Assembly: GCA_040767965.1 (NCBI GenBank) | Contig: JAXGNR010000009.1 | Location: forward strand, 37,955-101,954 | From: Atribacterota bacterium | GTDB taxonomy: Bacteria; Atribacterota; Phoenicimicrobiia; Phoenicimicrobiales; Stramentimicrobiaceae | Reading direction: 5' to 3' | DNA: 64,000 nucleotides | Shown here: positions 1 to 47,231 of the stretch, one piece after another | Position numbering within the stretch: the first letter of the stretch is position 1 | How the letters are laid out: every line of letters begins with the position of its first letter | Made by a program: the position numbers and the translations under genes | Notes under the pieces: generated by a model | Seen by the model: the letters and a program-made list of their open reading frames with translations, nothing else | Told to the model about the DNA's origin: nothing | Database searches by the model: none

Positions 1-124
1 ATTTGATCTAATTGAATGAAGTGCAGTGCGATAAAATCTATATTAGAAATAGGAATTTGGGATATAACATTATATTAATATTTTCTATTGTTTTCTATTT
101 TTTTGAAAAAGTAAGAGGTATAAT

Positions 125-650
125 ATGAGCAAAGTTACCAAAATTAGAGCATATAAGCAATCTAGTTAATAATTTTGTTACTAATATTTGTGCAACATTA
201 ATGTTAGTATTATTCGGGATAATACTATATGGAGTTTTTTATCGATATTTTTTAAATTACCCTCTGTCTTGGGTCATACCAATCGCAAGAATGCTGGTGG
301 TTTGGATTGGTATTAGCTATTTCGATAGCATTTAAAGAAGGGAACACATTGCTATCAATTATGTTGTTAATGTTTTTCCAGTACCAATACAAAAAATAAT
401 ACACAGTTTGGGATATATTCTCATTATTACATATCTTGTTTTGCTTATCTGGAAAGGTTTTCCAATTGCTTTCCAATCTGCTGAAACTGTCATGATATCG
501 AGAAAATAAGAATCCCACTAATTTGGTCTATGATCGCTATACCAATTGGTGCACTGGTTAATTTTATACACCTGTTGCCTCTACCTTTATTAATTGAGGA
601 ACGTATTGAGCAGTCTAGGAATGAGCAGAAAAATATCGCTTTAGATTTAT
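125..650 (+). pseudogene. TRAP transporter small permease (DctQ-like) remnant, frameshifted
   Basis: ATG at 125; hydrophobic DctQ-like segments spread over more than one frame directly upstream of a DctM remnant. Confidence 0.4.
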
Positions 651-686
651 AAGTAACAAATAAAAATAAGGAGCGAAAAGAAGAAG

Positions 687-1979
687 ATGTTTTTTATAGC
701 ATTATTATTAATAGTATTCGCATTGCTTATGGCTTTAGCAGTTCCTATTGGTTACGTGATAGGAATTACAGCCTCCTTTGGTTTATTATATATAGGTGGA
801 ACGGATTTTTTAAGAATATTAGTTACTCGATATAACAGTGGGCTCACTGGCTTTGTATTAGTAGCAGTACCTATGTTTACTTTAGCAGCTCAATTCATGA
901 ATCGCTCTGGTGTTACAGTATTGCTAATTAATTTTGCTAAAGTGTTTTTGGACGTCTTCGCGGGGGATTGGCTGTTGTCATTACTGCTGTTTGTGTTGTT
1001 TTTGGAATATTAACTGGTTCAGCGATGTAACTGAGACGATTGCAGTTGGAAGTATTTTGATTCCTAACATGAAAAAAGAAGGATATCCGGGGAGCATTCG
1101 CTGCTGCAGTAACAGGAACAGCTTCTGTTTTAGGCCCAATCATTCCTCCAAGTACAGTAATGATAGTTTAGCTACGATGATACCCGAGACATCAGTAATA
1201 TCCTTATTTGCCGCAGGCTTTTTACCTGGATTTTTGATAGCGGGTCTTATAATGCTTATTGTTATTTTCATTAGTTATCGCAAAGGTTATCCCAGAGGAG
1301 AAAGAGTAGCTGTAAAAGAAATTTTTAAAAGTGCGCTAAAAGCTATTATCCCTCTTATGACAGGGATAATCATGTTACTTCCTATATTTTATTAGGAATA
1401 ACTGATGTTACTGAAGCTTCTGCCGCAGGTGCTTTTTATGCTTTGTTATTGGTTTATTTTATTATAAAACATTAAAAATAAAAGATATTTTTGAATCAGC
1501 AAAAAACGCATCTAAGTTCTTGGGTGTTATTTATTTATTACTAGCTACAGCTAGTGTATTGGGTTGGATTATTGCAAAGTGGTCTTAGTACTATGGTATC
1601 AGACACAATAACCGGGTATAGTGGGAATCCAATTATGATACTTATTGCACTAAATATTTTTTTATTAATAGTGGGAATGTTTGTGGACACACTCCCAGCA
1701 GTAATTATACTAGCTCCAATTCTTATACCACCCCTGATAAGGATAGGATTTCATCCATTGCATGTGAGTATGTTATTATTAATTAATTTAAATATTGGGA
1801 ATGCTACACCTCCGGTAGGGATGACCCTTATGACTGCATCAAAAATTGCAGGGGTTTCTTATGAAAGCACAATAAAGCAAGGTTTTCCATTTATACTTTG
1901 CTTGATAATAGCACTTTTAATATTGACTTATTTCCCAGTGATTATTCTATTTGTACCAACTTTACTTGGTTTAATATAA
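687..1979 (+). pseudogene. TRAP transporter large permease (DctM-like), at least two frameshifts
   Basis: Three consecutive ORFs (687-1013, 934-1395, 1554-1979) in different frames together read like one DctM polytopic permease. Confidence 0.7.
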
Positions 1980-2399
1980 TTTTTTTAATCAAGCGAGAAC
2001 TCCCACCTATAAGGGCAGAGGTGAGAGCATGTATCTTTACCTTTCATCCGTACTTTAATTAACAATAAGTAAAAACTTAAAAAAATTATTCTGAATTTGT
2101 TTTTTAATAATTGTTTTGTTGTATTCCATTAACAAAAAGTATTAATTAGTGCTTATTAGTCGAAAGTTCAAAAGATCCAAAAGATGATGGGAAATAATAG
2201 TCTTGCATATAATAGAGAGGAGGTTCATTACCTAAAAGAAATTACTGCGGTAAATGTTGTATTGTAATTGGATAATTGTGGTGAATAAAGATTAAGTAAT
2301 ATAAGTAATAGATGAATAATAGTGAAAAGACATTGTGGCCTCATTAGATACAAAATACGCGCATGTTTTCTGAAGGAGAAAACAATAATGATAGAAAAA

Positions 2400-3604
2400 A
2401 CTATTTCCTTATCAGTCCATCGTCTCCTGCTCTACTCTTGGACATGAATAAGATAGAGCGAAACATAAAAATGTCTCGGCTAGCAGCCGATGCGAATGTT
2501 AGATTAAGGCCACATGTTAAGATTCATGAAAGTGCAGAAATTGCCAAATGCAAATTGATGCAGGAGCGTGTGGTGTAGAAGTAGGTCCTGTGGCTCAAGC
2601 GAGTGTATGGTAAATAATGGGATTAAGGATATAAAAATTGCTCACCACAGTTATTATGGCGGACACAAGGGTGAATCACTCAAAAGAATTCTTTTGAATG
2701 GCGATGTAAAAGTCACTGTTGTAATAGATATGATTGAACAAGCTGAACAAATATCTTGTATTGGTAAAATGCTTGGTCGAGAAGTTTTCTGTAAATATAA
2801 AGATTGATACAAGTATAGTAGCAGGTGGCATTTCACGTCATGGTATCAGAACTTGATGAAGAAGCCTTAATCACCGCAGCTAGGAAGGCTTCTAGATTCC
2901 ATATTAAAGTAACAGGAATTTACGCCCATGAAATGGGTGCTGAAGCAACAGATAAGTCTTTTAGATTTCATGCTTATAAAACTCTCGAGATAATGTCAAA
3001 CTTGGCTATAAAATTTAAAAATGCCGGTATTGAATTAAATGATGTTTCTGTTGGTGCTTCCCTGAATATCGCTATACATGCAAATATCTAAGGAAAGGTA
3101 AATTCGGGAGGTAAATGAACTTCATCCAGGGGAATTTTGTGATTGGCAGTCTTGTATACTGACATCTTGGTGGTAATAAAATAGAAAATTGCGCTCTCGA
3201 AGTATGTTGGTTACAGTAATGAGTACCGCTCATCCAGACTGGGTAATGATTGATGCAGGTTATAAAGGCTTTTTCTCCTGATTATATTTTGGGAGCTGAA
3301 TGAGCGAGCTATTTCTGGGAATACAAAGGTACACCTTTACGCTTTGGTCTTAGGTAAAGAACGCACAGATTTACGGGCAGCAACATTGTGAGTGCTGAGG
3401 TACATATTTATTATATGGATCACTAAACCAAAACTAAATATTGGTGACCGCTTGGAAATTATTCCAAACAACAGCACTTGTGCTATAAATATGCATGATC
3501 CTCTATATATGGAAGTAAGAAATGGCTTTATAGAGAGAGTAATTCCTATTACCTGTGGGGTAAAGGTAACTAGTGTTACGTTCCTAAAAAATCTTTACAT
3601 TTGA
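2400..3604 (+). pseudogene. D-serine deaminase-like / alanine racemase-domain protein (DSD1 family), degraded copy 1
   Basis: Fragments PALLLDMNKIERNI, RLRPHVKIHE and C-terminal GDRLEIIPNNSTCAINMHD parallel the neighbouring copy; several frame changes. Confidence 0.5.
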
Positions 3605-3740
3605 AATATTTTATCTGATACTTTGAGCAAGGATTGATTTAAGAGGAATATTATTATTGGGTTTTGATTAAATGATTCAATGTTTAATATTATATTTATA
3701 TTATTAATAGTAAAACTTTAATATATAAAAGGAGTTTTTA

Positions 3741-4850
3741 ATGGATAGATATATAATTGGTTCTCGAGTTGAAGATATCGAAACACCTGCTCTATTACTT
3801 GAGCTTGATAAACTTGAATACAAGCATAATAAAATGGCAGACTTAATAAGAAAAAACAATAAATATATTAGACCACATTTTAAAACACATAAGAATCCTT
3901 TTAGCGCACAAACAACTTTCAGCGGGGCTATTGGAATTACCTGCCAGAAATTATCAGAAACAGAGGTGCTGGCAAAATCTGGAATAAAAGATATCCTTAT
4001 TACAAATGAAGTGGTGGGGAAGCAAAAATAAGAAGATTAGTAAATTTAGCTGCTTATACTGATATCAAAGTTGCGATTGATAATGAGCAAAATGCAGAAG
4101 ATATTTCTGAGATAGCTTTAGACAAAGGTGTTGTAGTAAATTATTTGGTTGAAGTTAATATAGGAATGAATCGTTGTGGGATAAGAATAGGGGAGCCAGT
4201 TGTAAATTTTATAAAAAAAATAAATAAATTACAAGGTTTAAAATTTTTAGGGATCTTCGCTTATGAAGGCCACGCTGTATTTATAGAGTCATTGGAAGAA
4301 AGGTATAAAGAAACCAATATAGCCCTTGAAAAAGTTAGTCATACCAAAGAATTACTTGAAAAGGAATCCATATTTTTTGTCAAATAATTAGTTGTGCAGG
4401 AACAGGTACTTATATGATTGCAGGGCAACACCCAGATGTTACAGAAATTGAGGCAGGCAGTTATCTAACAATGGATAGCAAATATGAAAATATAGAGGGG
4501 GTTGGGGAAACCTTTAAAACAGCTTTAAGTGTACTTACTACTATTATAAGCATTCCAAGTAATGATAGGATAATTATTGATGCTGGTTTAAAATCTATAA
4601 GTAAAGATTTTGGTATGCCGTTCTCAAAGAACAATAGAGAGATCTAAAATTGTATAAGCTTTCAGAAGAACATGGAATATTTAAGGTAAATAAAAGATAA
4701 TAATAAAAATTTTTCTTTAGGGCAAAAAATAGAATTAATTCCTAGTCATGGTTGTACAACGATAAACTTACATGATCTTTATTATGGAATTAGATCCGGC
4801 ATTGTGGAATGCATTTTGCCAATAGAAGGAAGAGGAAAAAGCTATTAGGT
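3741..4850 (+). pseudogene. D-serine deaminase-like / alanine racemase-domain protein (DSD1 family), degraded copy 2
   Basis: N-terminus PALLLELDKLEYKHNKM...RPHFKTHK, then continuation in two other frames (4145-4387, 4414-4647) and C-terminal GQKIELIPSHGCTTINLHD; breaks sit at homopolymer runs. Confidence 0.6.
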
Positions 4851-5222
4851 AATAATTTTAAAAGCAAGAAAGTTATAGGGTTATAACAGGATCTATTGTT
4901 GACAATTTAACAAAGGAACTAGGGAGTAAGACTTATAACTACCAGATTCTCCCTAGTCCATATTTATTCTCCCAAATTCAGCTATTCACCAATCCTCTGG
5001 AGGCATTTTAACGGTTTCTTCCCGAGCAAGGTATCTTTATTTATTGAATGACACAAGAGACCGTTGTTCATGCTAAGCAATTTTTTGTCTTTATGGGCCT
5101 TAGAAATAACCGTTATGTAGTTTAAGAAATTTTATGCTATAATAATAAAAAATATCAATTAAAACATTTCTTAATAATATTCCGTTATTCAGAACCTATA
5201 ATTTTAAAGGGAGGCAATATAA

Positions 5223-5810
5223 ATGATTGCTTATAAAACAGAAAAACTTAACAATGCCATTTGTTATTTTGCCAATGAAGTTTATAAGCGAAGGAAGGAA
5301 TATTTGCCCCAAACATTATTATATAAATTGCTTTCTTATTTGGATTTCACCAGTATTGAAAAATTAGGAGTCCCAGCTTTAGAGCTAAAATATCGTGCTC
5401 TTAAGAATGGCCCAGTACCTGAAGAGATATATCAAAACAAAGATGCATACGAAACTGATTGCTTTAAATTTGAGAAGAGAAGCAATAGAAGATTTATTAT
5501 TATCTCAAAGAGGGAAGCTGATTTAGATTATTTTTCAGATTTTGAAATCGAGATAATGAATGATTTATTAAACAGATATATCGGCAAAGAAAATACTATG
5601 AAAGAAATCATTGATAATATCTGTAATGATAGTCACAAAGATATCAAAGCCTGGAAAGTAGCATATGACCGGGGAAAAAATAGTGAAATGAATTATAGTG
5701 ATACATTTGAAGCAATTGACCAAAAAGATCTTGAAAATTTATCTATATCTATAAATGAAGAAAGGTTTTTAGTTTATCGCGGCTTAAAAGAAAAAACTAA
5801 ATGCAATTAG
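5223..5810 (+). CDS. Panacea (DUF4065)-like domain protein, putative antitoxin
   Basis: 195 aa; motif KLLSYLDF...GVPALELKYRALKNGPVPEEIY resembles the DUF4065/SocA-type signature; RBS-like GGGAGG upstream. Confidence 0.55.
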   Translation: MIAYKTEKLNNAICYFANEVYKRRKEYLPQTLLYKLLSYLDFTSIEKLGVPALELKYRALKNGPVPEEIYQNKDAYETDCFKFEKRSNRRFIIISKREADLDYFSDFEIEIMNDLLNRYIGKENTMKEIIDNICNDSHKDIKAWKVAYDRGKNSEMNYSDTFEAIDQKDLENLSISINEERFLVYRGLKEKTKCN

Positions 5811-6145
5811 GTTCAGTATTTATTTGGAAAAATTTCCCCCACGGTAAAGATGGTACCATTAAAGATAGATATTTTGTATATGTTGGAGAAAGCCATTTCC
5901 CCGTTAACCCTGTACATATATTTTTAATTACTACAACAACTAGAAAAATGTATTATGCAACAGGTGGTTCTAGAGAAAAGCATAATATTTACAAGTTTAA
6001 AGCTGGTTCTTTTGGTTTTGTGGAAGATTGTATTTTAGATATTGATTTTCTTCAATCTAATATAAAAAAAAGTGCTTTTGACTCCTGTCAAAATGAAATA
6101 AAAGAGGTTGGTAAACTTCCGGAGAAAGAATTGAAAGAAATATAA
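5801..6145 (+). CDS. Small protein with MazF/PemK-like signature, putative toxin partner
   Basis: 114 aa; ATG overlaps the upstream stop by 10 nt; GSVFIWKNFPHGKDGTIKDRYFVYVG and ITTTTRK align by eye with MazF/EndoA N-terminal strands. Confidence 0.4.
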   Translation: MQLGSVFIWKNFPHGKDGTIKDRYFVYVGESHFPVNPVHIFLITTTTRKMYYATGGSREKHNIYKFKAGSFGFVEDCILDIDFLQSNIKKSAFDSCQNEIKEVGKLPEKELKEI

Positions 6146-6847
6146 TATATAATTTAATATTAAAATCTAAATACATAAACTTAAAGGCTAAACAAGATAT
6201 TTATATTAGCTATAACCACGCAAATATAATAGGTCTAAAGAGACCAAAAAGAAAATAAATAAAAAAGAATAAGTAAATAATGGAATCAGATACTGTCTTG
6301 AAAATCAACTCAAAACTATTCTTTAAGGATACGAAGAAATGTCCCCTGTATCGATTCTTTTTAGCTAGATGATAGATATTTTACTCTCTTACCGGAAATG
6401 TTTTAATAACTTAATACTATCTTCTTTCTTAGAGCTAGTGCTGTATAAGATGATTATAGCTGGTAATTTGAGCAAATTAATTAAACATGGATATCTTCTT
6501 CTCTTTTTTGAAGATTTCTAGTATTGCTATTAATTGCTTGTTTAACATCTCCTTACCCTCCCTGCCATAGTAAAGAGCTTTGTTCTCTCAATATAGAGGG
6601 GAGAAATCCCCTATAATTAAAATAATTTAGAGTACTTTTGCGTTTGAGGTATCGATAAAACTTGGAATACTTTTTTGATGAGGCAATTCAATATTTTGAC
6701 ATATTATTTAAACCATAATAAAATTGTAGCCATAAATAACTACATAATTATAGATATATTTACAAAAAAGAATCAAAATTAAGAAAAACATGGATACAGA
6801 GAACCGTTTCCTGTATCCTTCCTCAAAAATGTGAAGGAGGATTAAAC

Positions 6848-7864
6848 ATGGATATGCTTAAAGATAGCAGATATAATTTGAAGCCGGAGTTTCCGCCGCA
6901 TCTGTCTCTTGGAGTAAGCAAGGAAAAATTCATGCTGAAAACATGTGCAATCATGTCCATTCCATTGATCCTGGGGGTACTTGCAATTGGATGGCAAGCG
7001 CTTTGGCAGATCCTTATATCTTCCGGAACGGTTTTGATCCTGCATACTTTAATACAGTTTTGGGAAAGTCAGACAGAACGCCGTGTTTCATATCCTACAC
7101 CTGCATCACCGTTGGTACTGGCCTTGATAGTAGGTTTGAGTATGCCGGCTTCATCGCCATATACTGTGACTGTCGGAGTGGCTGCACTGGCTATGGTGAT
7201 ATTTAAATATTTACAAGGAAGAATTTTTACGCGCAAATTTGTAAATCCTGCTGCTGCTGCAAAAGCGGTGTTGTTGACAATGCTTTCACTTATGATATTT
7301 TTTGAAAATCCCCTTCGGGTAGGCATGCTCTACCATCCCCATCACTTGAATCTGGATTTGTTGTCTTCAGCTGGATTTGCTAGTGCGATTTCATTCTATG
7401 AAACTGATACTTTGACGGCTGTGCAGAGCCTGATCTTTTGGAAAACCCACGGTTGGATTGGTGGCGCTTCCGGGCTGGGAACGCTTGTTGCGGGAATAAT
7501 AGCCTGTTTCTGGATTAGACTTAAATGACGCATTCCCTTAGCTTTTCTTTCAGTAATGACTGTACTTTCAACAGGAATGGGGCTTTTTACGGGAGGAGAT
7601 CCTCTATCGCGTATTGCCCTGCATGTCTTTACCGGAAGTACTATTTTTCTGGCGTTTTTTATGGCTACCGAGCCTCAATCTACACCAATGCCGGAAAAAA
7701 GTCAGTACCTATTTGGTATCTCTTTAGCTGTACTTACTTTTGTTTTACAGCTGGCAGGAGTACTGGGTGGGTCTATTATTGCCCTGGTAATTTTAAATTT
7801 ATTCACTCCCTGGTTAGATAAAATTGGTCATAAAAGAGCTATAGGTATGAAAGGAGGCAAGTAG
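6848..7864 (+). pseudogene. rnfD: RnfD/NqrB-family membrane subunit interrupted by in-frame TGA at 7526-7528
   Basis: ORFs 6848-7528 and 7556-7864 are in the same frame; C-terminal FFMATEPQSTP matches the RnfD FFMATDP motif; combined length about 330 aa. Confidence 0.6.
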
Positions 7865-7865
7865 T

Positions 7866-9152
7866 ATGCGCAGGTATTATGAAGAAAAACAAGGCTTCAG
7901 GATTGATGCTAAAATGAAGTTAGGCCTGGAACAAAATGCCTTCGAAGTAATTCCAACACCTCCGGCGATAATAGTTTTCCTGGATCAACATGTTGGATTT
8001 CCTGGAAAGCCGCTGGTAAAAGAAGGAGACCGAGTCTTAACGGGCCAAAAAATATCTGATGGCGAGAAAAAGCTCACATTACCTGTGCACAGTCCTATTA
8101 CCGGTAGGGTGACCGGATTTGTTGAACTACGCCATCCTATTTCAGGAAAATTGAAGCACGCTGTAGCTATCGAAGCAGAAGGAGAAGAAGAGTGGATTCT
8201 TATGAAGCAGTATCCAAACTTTAAATCTTTAAGTAACCAGGAGATAATCAAACGAGTGCGGGAAGCCGGAATAGTAGGACTGGGTGGGGCTGCTTTTCCA
8301 ACATATATGAAATTATCCAGAGGATCTGATGTGGATCATCTGATTATAAATGCTAAAGAAAGTGATCCCAACCTTGCCTGTGATATTCGGTTGGCTCTTG
8401 AACAACCTGAAGAATTGATTAATGGGATCGAGATTATGGCTCGCGCTCTGGAGGTAGAGAAAGTTACTTTTGCTACCAGAACTGAAGAAGGTGAACTCCT
8501 TCAATTTGAAAAGCTTTTAAAAGAGCGAGGAATAAAAATTGCTCATATCAGACCTTCGTATTCGATAGGTAGTGAACGTCTGCTGGTACGTGAATTGTTG
8601 GGCAGAGAGGTGCCAGTCGATCAATACCCTCCGGATGTTGGTGTTGTGGTGCATAATGTGGCCACCTGTTTTGCAACCAGTGAAGCTGTTATTAAAGGTA
8701 AACCTCTTATTTCCAGAGGTATAACTTTTTATTCCAGTAAAACCGGAGGAAGAAACTTATGGGTAAGAATGGGCACTCCAATTGAACATATTCTGAACTA
8801 CATGAATATTTCTTCTGAGAACATAGATCGGGTTATCCTGGGATCAATAATGATGGGCAAAGGCGCACCTGATTTAAAAACACCCATGCTTAAGTGTTTT
8901 GCTGGCGTGGTAGCATTAACTTCCGATGAACATAGTTTATATAAAAACCCATCTCCGTGTATACGCTGTGGTTATTGTGATTCGATTTGTCCTGTGAATA
9001 TTTATCCATCTTTGCTTCTGGAAGCATTGGAAAAAGGCAGGACTGAGATCCTTGATTCTCTTAATATTAACTCATGTATAGACTGCAATCTTTGTTCTTA
9101 TGTATGCCCTTCTTCAATCAGAGTCAACCCCAAACAAAGAATGATGGGATAA
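7866..9152 (+). CDS. rnfC: RnfC-like electron transport subunit with two 4Fe-4S ferredoxin motifs
   Basis: 428 aa; GIVGLGGAAFPTYMKL motif; CIRCGYCDSICP and CIDCNLCSYVCP cysteine clusters; starts 2 nt after the rnfD-like ORF. Confidence 0.75.
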   Translation: MRRYYEEKQGFRIDAKMKLGLEQNAFEVIPTPPAIIVFLDQHVGFPGKPLVKEGDRVLTGQKISDGEKKLTLPVHSPITGRVTGFVELRHPISGKLKHAVAIEAEGEEEWILMKQYPNFKSLSNQEIIKRVREAGIVGLGGAAFPTYMKLSRGSDVDHLIINAKESDPNLACDIRLALEQPEELINGIEIMARALEVEKVTFATRTEEGELLQFEKLLKERGIKIAHIRPSYSIGSERLLVRELLGREVPVDQYPPDVGVVVHNVATCFATSEAVIKGKPLISRGITFYSSKTGGRNLWVRMGTPIEHILNYMNISSENIDRVILGSIMMGKGAPDLKTPMLKCFAGVVALTSDEHSLYKNPSPCIRCGYCDSICPVNIYPSLLLEALEKGRTEILDSLNINSCIDCNLCSYVCPSSIRVNPKQRMMG

Positions 9153-9524
9153 CTAACCGATTCTCCTTTTATTAAATTCTTAGAAAAATTTTATTTTTAT
9201 AAATAATTGATTTTTTAAAATAAAGAGAGTATATTGAAAACAATAATATATAACTATTAAATCATTAGCAATAGTTTAAATAATTATTAAAATATAAAAC
9301 TTTATATAGCATCATAATGTCTGTAATTAAACTGTTAAATATAAAGATAAAGACATATCTAAGTTTATTTATAGTTTAACTACGATATAAAGAAGATAAC
9401 CATATGTTTCATTTATTAAGAAAACTACACTATTAGATTAGCAAGAAAAATAAGTTAATGTTATGAATTCCCAATTCAAATTTAGAGCATATTTTAAGAA
9501 ATAGGAGGGTTTGCCTATTTAAAA

Positions 9525-9630
9525 AAGCTCTAAGCCGAGAAAGGTAAACCATCGGTAACGATGGGACGCAAAGTCAAGGGTCCCGCCTCAACTAATCCCC
9601 TCAATGGGACTGCCAGACTATCTGCTTACT
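9525..9630 (+). ncRNA. c-di-GMP-I (GEMM)-like riboswitch aptamer
   Basis: GGUAAACC-AUCG-GUAA-CGAU-GGGACGCAAAG-UCAAGGGUCC closely matches the Vibrio Vc2 core GGCAAACC...GAAA...GGGACGCAAAGCC; P2-like stem GGUCCC/GGGACU; about 130 nt upstream of a surface lipoprotein gene. Confidence 0.65.
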
Positions 9631-9757
9631 GCACCATGTTTATTTATGATTCGAAAAGATAAATCATATTCAAACTAAACCCATTACAGCCATATTCTAT
9701 GATGAACAATTATTTAATAATATTAAAGCATGTTATATAAAAAAGGAGGCTATTTAA

Positions 9758-11965
9758 TGAAATTAAGTAAAAAACTGGTTTCTGTTAGCATGTTTTTATT
9801 GATTTTATTATTTCTGTCGAGCTGCGGAATTATACCGCAAACACCTGAAGGAAAGATTTCCGGCCGGGTACTGATTCCCCTATTTGAAATGTCTAAGGAT
9901 GTTAGCGGATGGATTCCCACAGCCAATGCCGTAGTCACTATTGTTGATGCTTCTGGAGTAACCCATACAACAACTACTGATGAGGAAGGTTATTATAATT
10001 TTGAAGATATTACAGTCAATCCAAATACAGTTATTACTGCATCAGTCACTGTAGATGAAAATATTGTCATACTTAAAAATGTAATACCCCATGCAGTCAC
10101 AGCAGGTGAAGACTATAATGCCGGTGAAATGACTCCTGAATCAACAGCATTGGCTCTGGTGGTAGAAGAACTCCTGGCAGAAGGCATGGATCCGGAAGAT
10201 ATTGACCATGAAGAGATAGAATCAAATGATAATTTTTCAGATTTAGTAGAAAAAATTACTGAAGTACTAGAAGAGGGAGGAGATGTAACTACAGATCCTG
10301 ATATTGTTGATATAATAAACGACATTATCAACCCACCTGTACCTCCCTTCGCCACCATCACCTTCTCCAACTACAAAATTACCGATCTATAACCAGACTC
10401 AGAAGACATATCATGATACTATCCAGAAGGCGATCGATGCATCCGGTAGTGGTGATATCATTATTGTCTCTAAAGGAACTATATAATGAAAACATTGTTA
10501 TTGATAACAAAAACATAACCCTGAAAGCTCCGACCCTGCAGATTCCGTTGTTGTGGCTGCCACCATCATAGACGGACAGGACTTGAATTCGGTGATAAAG
10601 ATCCTAAACGGAGACAAATCAAACCTGGAGGGATTTACCATCCAGAATGGAAATGAACCTGATTATGGAGGTGGGGGTATCTTTATCCGGCAGTTCTCCT
10701 GTGATCAGATACAACATTATTGGGGATAATATTGATGATGATATTGACACAGGGAATTTTGGAGATTGTGGTGGTGGAATTGGTGTTGTTGAATATAGTG
10801 AAACACCACATATTTATGAAAACATTATTATTGGCAACTCAGCAGACTATGGCGGCGGAATGTATATAGATTATGGTTCTCCTCTTGTTGAAAATAATAC
10901 GATTAAAGAAAATACCAGTAAGTACGACGGCGGAGGAATTACAGTGTTTTTCAGCAAGGAAGAGGAATATTGCCCAACCATCAGGGATAATACTATTGAA
11001 TATAATGTGGCAGATAATGGTGGTGGAATTGCTGTGGATGATTTAGGGATGCTATAATTGAAAATAACGGAATCAACAACAACGAAGCAATTTTTGGTGG
11101 AGGGATTTATGTTTATTACAAAGCTGATGCAGATATAAAAGGAAATAATATTATTGAAAACAATAAGGCAGGATATGATGGTGGAGGTATTTATATTGAT
11201 TCAGATGGCATCATCACTATTACCTCAAATACTATCAATAACAATGTAGCAAATATTGCTTCAGGTTCTTACTCCGGTGGAGGAATTTATGTGAATGAAA
11301 CATTCATGGCGACAACTCCCACAATTGGGGGTACGACGGGAATTGATACTGATAATTTTAACATTATCTGTGGTAACAGCCCTGACCAGGTGGATCCTGA
11401 TGATTATCCTAATAATTATTATTATACAATTGGCGATACAGGACCTGCTGGTGGGATCATCTTCTATATTGATGAAGCGAGACAGTTTGATTGGACTTAT
11501 CTTGAATGTGCACCCTATGGCTGGTATGATGGAGGAGAGGATCCAATACTGGCTTGGGGACCATGGGATGGAACCTCGGGATCACCTGGAGATGGTGTAG
11601 GAACAGGGATTTATGATTATGAATCGGATCTTGGGCTGGGGGAGGCAAATACCACCCTCATTCTTGCTGAAACTGGAACATTCCCAGCTGCTGAAGCAGC
11701 AGCTGCATATACAGGTGGTAGCCAAACAGACTGGTTTCTGCCCTCGAAATCTGAATTGAGTCTGATGTATTCCAATCTGTATCTGGCAGGATTGGGAGGA
11801 TTTTCTGATGATTCCACTAATCCACAAGATTTCTATTGGTCTTCTGCAGAAACTTCTCCTAACTCGGAATGGAAATTAGCTTGGACTAATTGTTTTGCAA
11901 GTGCAGGGCTTGGAGGATTCGATAAGACTTTGTCTTTTCGTGTTAGACCAATCCGAGCTTTTTAG
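9758..11965 (+). pseudogene. Large surface lipoprotein (beta-helix repeats, DUF1566-like C-terminus), multiply frameshifted
   Basis: Lipoprotein signal MKLSKKLVSVSMFLLILLFLSSCG; repeated GGGI beta-helix-type motifs; C-terminal DWFLPSKSELSLMY resembles DUF1566; reading frame changes at least three times. Confidence 0.6.
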
Positions 11966-12212: not shown

Positions 12213-12569
12213 ATGGAAAGAGAAAAAATTAATCAGGAAAAGTTGATTGTATTATGGACTAGTGCTGATAAAGAAGTAGCATTGAATATGGTTTTTATGT
12301 ATACGCTGAATTCTAAAAAGAGACAATGGTGGAAAGAAGTTGACTTAATCGTGTGGGGTCCTTCAGCAAAGTTATTAACTGAAGACAAGGAATTACAAGA
12401 TTATATCTTAAGAATGAAAGAAGAAGGCGTTATATTAGAAGCCTGTAAAACCTGTGCTGACAATTATGGTGTAGCCAGACAGCTGGAAGAATTGGGAATT
12501 GATGTGAAATTAATGGGAATGCCCTTGACCGAATATCTGAAACAGGGATATCGGGTTATAACTTTCTAA
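12213..12569 (+). CDS. DsrE/DsrF-like family protein
   Basis: 118 aa; small alpha/beta protein with conserved Cys (EACKTCADNYG) typical of DsrE-like proteins. Confidence 0.55.
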   Translation: MEREKINQEKLIVLWTSADKEVALNMVFMYTLNSKKRQWWKEVDLIVWGPSAKLLTEDKELQDYILRMKEEGVILEACKTCADNYGVARQLEELGIDVKLMGMPLTEYLKQGYRVITF

Positions 12570-46087: not shown

Positions 46088-46308
46088 ATATTGACAAACA
46101 TAAAGAAATGGTAAATACTTTTAATAGTCTGCCTGAAAAAAAATATTATTACAGAATACCACAACTCCGAATTATCTAACCTAATGATAAAATACTATTT
46201 TTTTCTATGGTTAGATAATCAGTTATTATTTGTAAAATAACCAAGGGCAATTAAGGAAACTTAATTGCCTCCCATAATTGGAAAGGAGGGATACTTTGCA
46301 TGAAGTTC

Positions 46309-46385: not shown

Positions 46386-47231
46386 ATGGAATTTGTAACA
46401 TTAAATAACGATATAAAAATGCCCATGTTAGGGTATGGTGTATTTCAGATTGCAGATGAAAAAATATGCGAACAATGCGTATCTGATGCCATTAAGGCCG
46501 GCTATCGTTCCATTGATACAGCAGCAGCTTATTTAAACGAAGAAGCAGTAGGAAGAGGTATTGAAAAAAGTGGAATACCCAGAGAAGAACTCTTTATAAC
46601 AACTAAAGTCTGGGTACAGGATGCCGGTTATGAAAATGCTAAAAAAGCTTTTGAAAAATCCATGCAAAAATTGCAGCTGGATTACCTTGACCTATATTTA
46701 GTTCACTGGCCTTTTAGTGATTATTATGGTTCCTGGAGGGCAATGGAGGAACTTTATAAAGAAGGAAGAATCAGGGCAATTGGTGTTTCTAATTTTTCCA
46801 GAGATCGCCTGTTTGATTTAATATTAAATAGCGAGATAGTGCCAGCAGTTAACCAGGTTGAAGTACATCCGTTTAATCAGCAGATAGAACAAAAGAAGAT
46901 CATGGATGACTTAAAAGTACAGATGGAATCCTGGGGGCCACTGGCACAGGGTAAAAACAATATTTTTAAAGATGAAATATTGTCTGCCATTGGAAAGAAG
47001 TACAGCAAAACTGTGGCTCAGGTAATCCTGCGCTGGCATATTCAACGTGGAGTTGTTGCTATTCCCAAATCTGCTACCAAAGAAAGAATTATAGAAAATT
47101 ATAATATATGGGACTTTCAATTAAGCCAGGAAGATATGGATGCTATTAAATCTTTTGATACAGGCAAACCTTTCCTGGACGGCACCAGCTTAGAGACTGT
47201 TAAAAGATTAAACAGCAGTAAGATCCATTAA
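46386..47231 (+). CDS. Aldo/keto reductase
   Basis: 281 aa; IDTAAAY and LVHWP motifs. Confidence 0.9.
   Translation: MEFVTLNNDIKMPMLGYGVFQIADEKICEQCVSDAIKAGYRSIDTAAAYLNEEAVGRGIEKSGIPREELFITTKVWVQDAGYENAKKAFEKSMQKLQLDYLDLYLVHWPFSDYYGSWRAMEELYKEGRIRAIGVSNFSRDRLFDLILNSEIVPAVNQVEVHPFNQQIEQKKIMDDLKVQMESWGPLAQGKNNIFKDEILSAIGKKYSKTVAQVILRWHIQRGVVAIPKSATKERIIENYNIWDFQLSQEDMDAIKSFDTGKPFLDGTSLETVKRLNSSKIH

Follow-up and report, generated by a model that had tools for sequence, protein, structure and literature searches.

At the left end of the window (the whole stretch of 64,000 nt that was analysed), six or seven neighbouring genes are disrupted, while the 43 genes to the right are all whole. Our preferred reading, to which we give a probability of roughly 0.57, is that accessory genes were genuinely lost here at different times, from a flexible and in part foreign 12 kb of a low-GC genome that is probably related to Atribacterota.

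Disrupted genes made up 6 of 10 on the left but 0 of 43 on the right (Fisher p=9e-6). The 43 coding sequences (CDS) right of 12 kb cover 42.4 kb and hold 439 homopolymer runs of 5 or more, and all of them are open. Among them, 20 were tested and every one gave a full-length Pfam match. The window contains no ambiguous bases (0).

Lesions were called by a purpose-written frameshift-aware protein-to-DNA alignment, and DSD1#2 and the lipoprotein gene were also aligned at the nucleotide level to close relatives (Table 1). Full-length family homology combined with frameshifts or premature stops, by which we recognised pseudogenes, was found for dctQ, dctM, DSD1#1, DSD1#2, the RnfD-like gene and the lipoprotein gene. 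The preliminary description of this DNA had named five disruptions in the left 12 kb and held that long genes elsewhere are intact; all five lie where it placed them, with more lesions than it reported, and the 43 open CDS agree with its second claim. It also proposed a comparison with close relatives, which yielded intact orthologues for DSD1#2 (L016-L019, 88% nucleotide identity), RnfD (L020 at 97%, and L021-L024) and the lipoprotein gene (L025, 80%). For dctQM, the nearest intact homologues are merely 61% identical in amino acids. Exact-protein look-ups with five window ORFs (among them RnfC-like, Panacea, Panacea partner and DsrE-like), in a collection that lacks this genome, returned no independent copy.

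Table 1. Features in the left 12 kb, in window coordinates.
Feature	Position	Strand	Evidence or lesions
dctP 3' end, periplasmic binding subunit, cut by window edge (probable)	1..50	+	LNEVQ..KIY motif at 12-44
dctQ pseudogene, TRAP small membrane subunit	125..652	+	4 frameshifts near 143, 312, 343, 498
dctM pseudogene, TRAP large permease	687..1979	+	7 frameshifts near 939, 1025, 1087, 1169, 1384, 1446, 1574
DSD1#1, DSD1-family (D-serine dehydratase / D-threonine aldolase-like) pseudogene, deeply degraded	~2381..3604	+	profile fragments
DSD1#2 pseudogene	3741..4848	+	6 indels, nonsense codons 0
Panacea-domain (SocA-like) putative antitoxin, intact	5223..5810	+	Pfam PF13274 38.8 bits; phrog_1281
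114-aa ORF, intact, putative toxin partner	5801..6145	+	overlaps Panacea gene by 10 nt
RnfD-like membrane subunit gene, one nonsense codon	6848..7864	+	TGA at 7526-7528, from TGG (Trp)
RnfC-like FMN/4Fe-4S subunit gene, intact	7866..9152	+	TIGR01945 rnfC 385 bits vs cut-off 246
c-di-GMP-I riboswitch, intact, upstream of broken lipoprotein gene	9533..9625	+	Rfam RF01051 48.7 bits vs gathering score 35
Lipoprotein pseudogene: CarboxypepD_reg, right-handed beta-helix, Lcl_C	9757..11965	+	5 frameshifts, Pfam domains

Broken and intact genes in the left 12 kb

The first genes belong to a TRAP transporter, with DctQ and DctM domains in operon order behind the C-terminal motif of dctP; orthologous loci are arranged dctP-dctQ-dctM. 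The stitched dctQ protein matched Pfam DctQ (PF04290) with 62 bits. Its frameshifts were placed against DctQ of L007 and L004, and because these references are about 50% identical the positions are approximate (about +-10 nt). The dctM gene keeps its full length and shows 0 in-frame stops once the frames are corrected. It matched Pfam DctM (PF06808) with 345 bits and its best homologues (427 aa) with 61% identity over 99% coverage, and two references placed the identical 7 events. At least two frameshifts had been noticed in dctQM before, and the number is now 4 in dctQ and 7 in dctM. TRAP transporter function is predicted to be lost in this genome. Changes at conserved sites of dctM (14 against a median of 2) were set aside as evidence, since the long branch (61% to the nearest homologue) biases the test. 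A scan of a set of genome contigs with the stitched DctM gave homologues at 25-36% identity and none closer, and the window's own dctPQM paralogue, as a tblastn query, proved too remote to be of use (29%).

Bases 12-44 of the window are probably the 3' remnant of dctP. The DctP orthologues in L004 and L007 end with ...LNEVQKIY... and ...LSEVDRIY..., and frame 3 of the window reads LI*LNEVQCDKIY. Depending on the reading of the join, a TAA at 9-11 or a 2-nt frameshift precedes the motif, so the decay probably extends beyond the left edge of the window.

Two DSD1-like genes follow, both disrupted as first described. DSD1#1 is wrecked: it has 7-12 frameshifts and several in-frame stops, and was recognised from co-linear profile fragments in three frames that sum to about 100 bits. 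Its profile alignment score is 131-162 against 950 for DSD1#2. The catalytic motifs are lost (THK to IHE, PSHGC to PNNST), and with the first of them the PLP lysine that marks the DSD1 family. DSD1#2 retains THK together with Ala_racemase_N and D-ser_dehydrat domains and belongs to this family; its top NCBIfam match is BhcC-like with 298 bits, under the cut-off of 690. In the frameshift-aware alignment with P0121, 319 of 365 residues are identical. Nucleotide alignment to intact orthologues in L016-L018 (88%) and L010 (81%) placed its small indels: -2 (T run) near 3900, -1 at 3922, -1 (A6->A5) at 4024, +2 (T4->T6) at 4373, -1 at 4640 and +1 at 4692.

The Panacea pair that comes next is clean. 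Its partner ORF had been called MazF-like, for which we found no support: the 114-aa protein has no match in Pfam, NCBIfam, PHROGs or PDB, and its AF2 single-sequence model (pLDDT 41) is unusable. It had also been claimed that this pair is the sole intact module here, a view that the intact RnfC-like gene and c-di-GMP-I riboswitch overturn.

The RnfD-like and RnfC-like genes form a two-gene cassette (6819-9140) about 10 GC points above its flanks (0.42 vs 0.32). This offset is repeated in L021, L022 and L024, and the cassette stands in varying genomic contexts among relatives. As in L021 and L022, D-like and C-like genes are all that it contains here, so that it is not a complete Rnf complex (RnfCDGEAB). 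The RnfD-like protein matched Pfam NQR2_RnfD_RnfE with 131 bits and lies well under its family cut-off (91 vs 207). Its subfamily is rare, with 8 representatives at E<1e-10 among 1.84 billion. The RnfC-like protein shares 99% amino acid identity with L020. The disruption reported for the rnfD-like gene is one TGG->TGA change; Trp occupies this column in each of the 5 closest homologues, and five related contigs, L020 (97% identical) and L021-L024, have TGG.

The riboswitch differs from L020 at 1 of 93 nt, and the flanking spacers differ by 5.5-8.4%. Behind it, the beta-helix lipoprotein gene is disrupted as the preliminary description said. Frameshift-aware alignment to P0292 and P0293 and nucleotide alignment to L025 (80%) and L026 gave +1 (C2->C3) at 10345, +1 (TA repeat) at 10481, -1 (A run) at 10525, -2 (GT) at 10685 and -1 (G4->G3) at 11049. 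All 5 frameshifts fall inside 704 nt (10345-11049), 32% of the gene (p=0.04).

Could some interrupted genes still yield functional products? The lone UGA of RnfD (followed by C) sits at a Trp codon and might be read as Trp, the next 112 codons are perfectly conserved, and an ATG at 7556 might start a C-terminal piece, giving two polypeptides; for the lipoprotein, phase variation by slippage can be imagined, its first frameshift lying in a C-rich proline-linker tract. But TGA is the normal stop codon of 11 of the 46 genes, no hairpin or SECIS-like structure was found after the RnfD TGA (z=0.07) and the relatives all encode Trp by TGG, and we reject selenocysteine or a reassigned codon on these grounds. 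The slippage tracts are all short, and a switch cannot consist of five frameshifts in a single gene or, as in dctM, of seven. We find functional products hardly credible.

Genuine decay or erroneous sequence

The preliminary description left two explanations side by side, relaxed selection or a local problem of sequence quality. A general homopolymer or quality problem can be rejected, because the 439 long runs in 42 kb of CDS are intact and an independent metagenome contig (L020, Ga0172382_10064822, 97% identical) matches window 6525-10091 over 3,567 nt with 100 substitutions and 0 gaps. The match takes in 834 nt of AT-rich spacer, and since it is gapless this part of the window is free of indel differences. 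At least two lesions, the TGG->TGA of RnfD and the deep degradation of DSD1#1, are of substitution type, which indel errors cannot produce. Both lesions support real decay.

Other lesions need more caution. Frame correction of dctQ, dctM, DSD1#2 and the lipoprotein gene removes 22 indels, all of 1-2 nt, and leaves 0 nonsense codons and full-length, well conserved proteins; in dctQ, dctM and DSD1#2, the three without lineage gaps, no indel reaches 3 nt. Because these 22 lesions are so uniform and carry no nonsense, the letters themselves leave room for a strictly local fault. It would consist of two low-accuracy consensus patches, at ~1-4.7 kb and 10.3-11.1 kb, with about 0.5% small-indel errors that might come from gaps filled with long reads, from stretches left unpolished or, in a hybrid or metagenome assembly, from strain-variable DNA at low coverage. 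The four genes would then really be intact, and DSD1#1 and possibly RnfD would be the only real pseudogenes. We regard this as the main rival, possible but less likely than decay.

Several features count against decay and suit such patches. In dctQ, dctM, DSD1#2 and the 704-nt lipoprotein stretch alike, one indel occurs in about every 130-185 nt. The clustered lipoprotein events begin about 250 nt beyond the breakpoint of the independent assembly L020, just past the end of this short-read metagenome contig, and the gene shows no nonsynonymous excess (N/S 39/43 on the window branch vs 20/25, p=0.85). The ratio of indels to substitutions is high and exceeds that of the lineage's spacer DNA: DSD1#2 has 6 indels to ~21-49 substitutions, against 0 per 37 in same-lineage spacer (p=0.004 to 0.08). 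Small-indel frameshifts are also a known mark of imperfectly polished long-read assemblies (PMC9262707, PMC12007338, 10.1101/2021.08.23.457338).

However, the lesions track gene boundaries, not position, which favours decay. Error patches would need to end precisely at the Panacea pair and RnfDC and spare 52 kb; at the hit-gene indel rate (0.43% per nt) about 14 events are expected in these four genes and 0 were seen (P=9e-7). The mapped indels are a poor fit to homopolymer-type platform errors, because only about 5 of the 11 placed at the nucleotide level lie in runs of at least 4 and two, including T4->T6, are 2-nt changes; a further 3 are in runs of 2-3, and 3 are outside any run. The remark that several breaks coincide with homopolymer runs thus holds for about half of them. 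DSD1#2 also has an excess of amino-acid-changing substitutions (N/S 26/23 on the window branch vs 16/36 on the sister branch, p=0.028) and 8 changes at columns conserved in at least 90%; the median among 120 homologues is 3, and only 5 of them have as many. This supports decay, since pure indel errors would not yield it and the patches would need ~2% substitution error besides. The substitution-type pseudogenes in or beside them would be coincidence. Stop-creating changes make up ~3-5% of substitutions, and zero nonsense among the estimated few dozen neutral ones is thus only mildly unlikely.

Proposed order and origin of the losses

If genuine decay is accepted, we infer that the genes were lost in steps. 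DSD1#1 would be the oldest wreck. The second loss would be that of dctPQM and the neighbouring enzyme DSD1#2, which may have worked as one unit to take up and break down a D-amino or hydroxy-amino acid, lost selection jointly and since gathered about one small indel per 130-185 nt each. Third and more recently, the c-di-GMP-controlled surface lipoprotein would have been broken, and last the RnfD-like gene by a single G->A nonsense change, which the strain ~97% identical over the shared 3.6 kb lacks. The clean parts in between (Panacea pair, RnfC, riboswitch) may be still under selection or self-maintaining.

The block might instead have been imported already dead by horizontal transfer. The GC content of RnfDC and of the lipoprotein gene exceeds the background by 7-10 points, and the cassettes of DSD1#2 and RnfDC occur in different contexts among relatives. 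But these are the only genes that deviate in GC, with dctQM and the two DSD1 copies at the host value (0.32), and the RnfD lesion arose in place, since the 97% relative has an intact gene. We also rejected a defined mobile element or genomic island: no tRNA, meaningful flanking repeats, integrase remnant or other recognisable remnants in the spacers, or plasmid or phage similarity was found. Import in a dead state therefore seems very improbable.

It is also conceivable, though we think it quite unlikely, that the embedded intact Panacea pair penalises larger deletions and so keeps dead genes full-length but riddled with small indels. The indel-only lesion spectrum would then be the footprint of deletion-protected decay.

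The feature is of an ordinary kind, and its main practical value is caution for annotation. If the lesions are real, three functions were lost here step by step: a D-amino or hydroxy-amino acid route that depends on TRAP, a surface protein regulated by c-di-GMP, and a rare two-gene RnfD/RnfC module. They should then not be credited in metabolic reconstruction of this low-GC, poorly known lineage. If they are artefacts, two assembly stretches need polishing and the genes should be annotated as intact. Our literature search on Atribacterota pseudogenes found nothing.

Comparison with known systems

Polishing artefacts of long-read and hybrid assemblies (PMC9262707, PMC12007338, 10.1101/2021.08.23.457338) resemble the four indel-bearing genes in that 1-2 nt indels fragment well-conserved genes without nonsense codons. 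Such errors are usually spread over the whole genome, mostly in homopolymers. In the present case, by contrast, only four genes are affected, half of the indels are outside long runs, the neighbouring CDS (42 kb with 439 long runs) are clean, and the independent contig aligns without gaps to 3.6 kb of the region.

Toxin-antitoxin cassettes in superintegrons and genomic islands stabilise dispensable DNA. The intact Panacea-domain pair amid an undeleted dead block is similar to such chromosomal modules, but its partner has no recognisable toxin family, and its toxicity and stabilising role are putative.

Multi-hit pseudogenes are known from the accessory regions of bacteria, such as pathogens and symbionts that became niche-restricted recently. 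The present case differs from those pseudogenes in being one 12-kb stretch, from which genome-wide reduction cannot be claimed, with no IS elements, no deletions above 2 nt in the younger pseudogenes and an unusually high ratio of indels to nonsense changes. It is like them in having recognisable full-length genes with frameshifts and nonsense codons and intact orthologues in relatives, in lesions that gather in dispensable genes, here those for a transporter, a catabolic enzyme and a surface protein, and in pseudogenes of mixed ages side by side.

Gene content of the left 12 kb

The window is AT-rich (GC 0.33), and all recognisable genes of its left 12 kb are on the plus strand. Pfam was run on frame-stitched translations of this stretch and agreed with the gene calls of the preliminary description. 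The DSD1-type enzyme was recognised by its Ala_racemase_N and D-ser_dehydrat domains. The Panacea gene, the ORF of 114 aa overlapping it, and the RnfC-like gene are still open frames. For the 114-aa ORF, searches of Pfam, NCBIfam, PHROGs and PDB gave no match, and it folded poorly when modelled without an alignment; it could be an undescribed Panacea-associated toxin.

Features of the window, with profile matches and lesions
Feature	Coordinates	Strand	Profile match	Lesions
dctQ	125-652	+	Pfam, 62 bits	4 frameshifts
dctM	687-1979	+	Pfam, 345 bits	7 frameshifts, same positions from two references
DSD1#1	2381-3604	+		
DSD1#2	3741-4848	+		indels -2, -1, -1, +2, -1, +1 vs three intact orthologues (88% nt identity)
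Panacea-domain gene	5223-5810	+	Pfam	
114-aa ORF	5801-6145			
RnfD-like gene	6848-7864	+	Pfam, NQR2/RnfD/RnfE family	sole lesion: TGA at 7526-7528
RnfC-like gene	7866-9152	+	Pfam	
c-di-GMP-I riboswitch	9533-9625		Rfam; directly upstream of lipoprotein gene	
Lipoprotein gene	9757-11965	+	Pfam CarboxypepD_reg, beta-helix, Lcl_C	five events, 10345-11049: C2 to C3; +1 in TA repeat; -1 in A run; -2 "GT"; G4 to G3
YedF/DsrE-like ORF (weak)	12213-12569			
Molybdenum-cofactor riboswitch (strong)	46153-46304		RF01055, 80.9 bits	
ORF downstream of it	46386-47231			

Distribution and kinds of lesions

Disrupted genes were said to cluster in the left 12 kb while long genes elsewhere stayed whole, and both points were confirmed: on the left 6 of 10 genes are disrupted, and to the right none of 43 (p=9e-6). 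The 43 open CDS cover 42.4 kb, or 82% of the sequence there, and the 20 scanned had Pfam matches end to end. As these intact CDS contain 439 homopolymer runs of at least 5 bases, a general homopolymer problem is ruled out.

Lesions were counted with a purpose-written frameshift-tolerant protein-to-DNA aligner, which was checked on DSD1#2, the second DSD1 copy: nucleotide alignment to intact orthologues gave the same six events. Its -2 and -1 indels at 3900-3922 are 19 nt apart, directly after the PLP-lysine motif; they jointly restore the frame and rewrite about six codons. The corrected dctM had neither in-frame stop nor codon-sized gaps. The co-linear profile fragments left in DSD1#1, across three frames, add up to only about 100 bits; its profile alignment score is 131-162 vs 950 for its neighbour DSD1#2, and the PLP lysine motif THK is changed to IHE and PSHGC to PNNST.

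The TGA column of the RnfD-like gene is Trp in all five closest homologues, and the codon is TGG in 5 related metagenome contigs, one of them 97% identical. Read-through or selenocysteine at this UGA is unsupported, as TGA is a normal stop in the window and relatives have TGG; no hairpin was found downstream of it (z=0.07). At the left edge, bases 12-44 encode LNEVQ..KIY, as in the C-terminal motif of DctP orthologues, with a TAA or 2-nt shift just before, so a third TRAP gene (dctP) is probably present beyond the edge, and probably damaged.

Real decay or local sequence error

We consider real decay the better reading of the disruptions, with a probability of a little under 60%. The lesions keep to gene boundaries: had the Panacea pair and the RnfD/RnfC genes taken up indels at the rate of the hit genes, about 14 would be expected there, and they have none (P=9e-7). 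L020, a related contig from an independent metagenome, matches 6525-10091 with 100 substitutions and zero gaps, including 834 nt of AT-rich spacer. The lesions of DSD1#1 and RnfD are of the substitution type. In DSD1#2, nonsynonymous changes are in excess: N/S is 26/23 on the window branch vs 16/36 on the sister branch (p=0.028), and conserved columns are changed more often than in 115 of 120 homologues. Several breaks had been described as coinciding with homopolymer runs; this was true of only about 5 of 11 nucleotide-mapped indels (runs of 4 or more), and the remainder lie outside such runs.

The interpretation as real decay is partly supported, and its main rival is that local patches of sequence error account for the indels, which we regard as possible but less likely. 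In dctQ, dctM, DSD1#2 and the lipoprotein gene all 22 indels are of 1-2 nt, none of 3 nt or more was seen in the first three, and no nonsense codon appears in the four genes after correction. One- and two-base events predominate in the spontaneous indel spectra of bacterial mutation-accumulation studies, however, which weakens small size as evidence of error. Under the transition bias seen here, a substitution gives rise to a stop in only about 3-5% of cases, so zero nonsense codons in a few dozen neutral substitutions is only mildly unlikely. Event density is alike across these genes (about 1 per 130-185 nt), but a joint loss of selection on dctPQM and DSD1#2, as parts of one pathway, would have the same effect. 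Also in favour of error, the events in the lipoprotein gene fall close together (p=0.04), the first about 250 nt beyond the L020 assembly break; N/S is not raised in this gene; and the indel-to-substitution ratio of DSD1#2 exceeds that of same-lineage spacer DNA (0 per 37; p=0.004-0.08).

Genes with five to seven shifts each cannot be explained by phase variation. The arrival of DNA that was dead beforehand is contradicted in the case of RnfD, and the genes of native GC give it no support.

Regional context and possible order of loss

Soda-lake metagenomes, among others, are the source of the close relatives. NCBI records give the name Atribacterota to the cluster of the 79%-identical DSD1 orthologue, and one contig of this kind has two window genes in common at about 82% nt identity. 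Divergence from L020 is about 1% over RnfD, RnfC and the upstream spacer and 5.5-11% from 9153 on (spacer and lipoprotein 5' end), which suggests either that recombination had a breakpoint here or that the surface-protein allele evolves fast; within the diverged part, the riboswitch shows a single difference in 93 positions.

RnfD and RnfC make up a self-contained cassette (6819-9140) whose surroundings vary among relatives and whose GC is about 10 points above the flanks in every host, including contigs L021, L022 and L024. The stand-alone two-gene form was seen repeatedly (window, L021 to L024). The RnfD-like subfamily is rare, with 8 representatives at E<1e-10 among 1.84 billion; fusions occur with molybdopterin oxidoreductase (P0243, 1131 aa) and a 4Fe-4S domain (P0244). 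Both ends (1-431 and 4134-4564) of the 4.6-kb metagenome contig L023 carry one and the same RnfD segment (98.6% identity, 425/431), as would be seen with two cassette copies in tandem or with a circle put together from mixed strains. The copies are separated by 1.8 kb with direct repeats of 50-85 nt (2406-3146).

DSD1#2 is likewise in differing contexts in relatives. Contigs L016, L017 and L018 have its orthologue (window 3695-4875) in near-identical form, together with roughly 50 nt before and 25 nt after it, and the flanks differ (Feo iron-transport operon, ABC transporter, PEGA/Lcl_C surface proteins). This resembles a cassette of one gene that moves or recombines. A selenium/sulfur cluster (SelD-like AIRS protein, YedE-like transporter, TusA, cysteine desulfurase) adjoins DSD1 and RnfDC in relatives (L010 5618-9307; L021 13204-16651); of this the window has only the weak YedF/DsrE-like ORF, where the decayed block ends on the right. 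No tRNA, flanking repeats, integrase remnant, or plasmid or phage similarity was found. The left 12 kb is best seen as flexible, accessory DNA and not as a defined mobile element.

A PLP enzyme comes after dctPQM in the orthologous loci. The TRAP uptake system and adjoining DSD1-type enzymes may have worked as a unit in the use of a D-amino or hydroxy-amino acid. One DSD1 copy would have died long ago, and the rest of the unit would have lost selection later and drifted since. The c-di-GMP-regulated lipoprotein may have been broken next, and the RnfD nonsense mutation would be the latest event because it is confined to this strain.

The feature is of an ordinary kind and matters chiefly for annotation and for quality control of the assembly.
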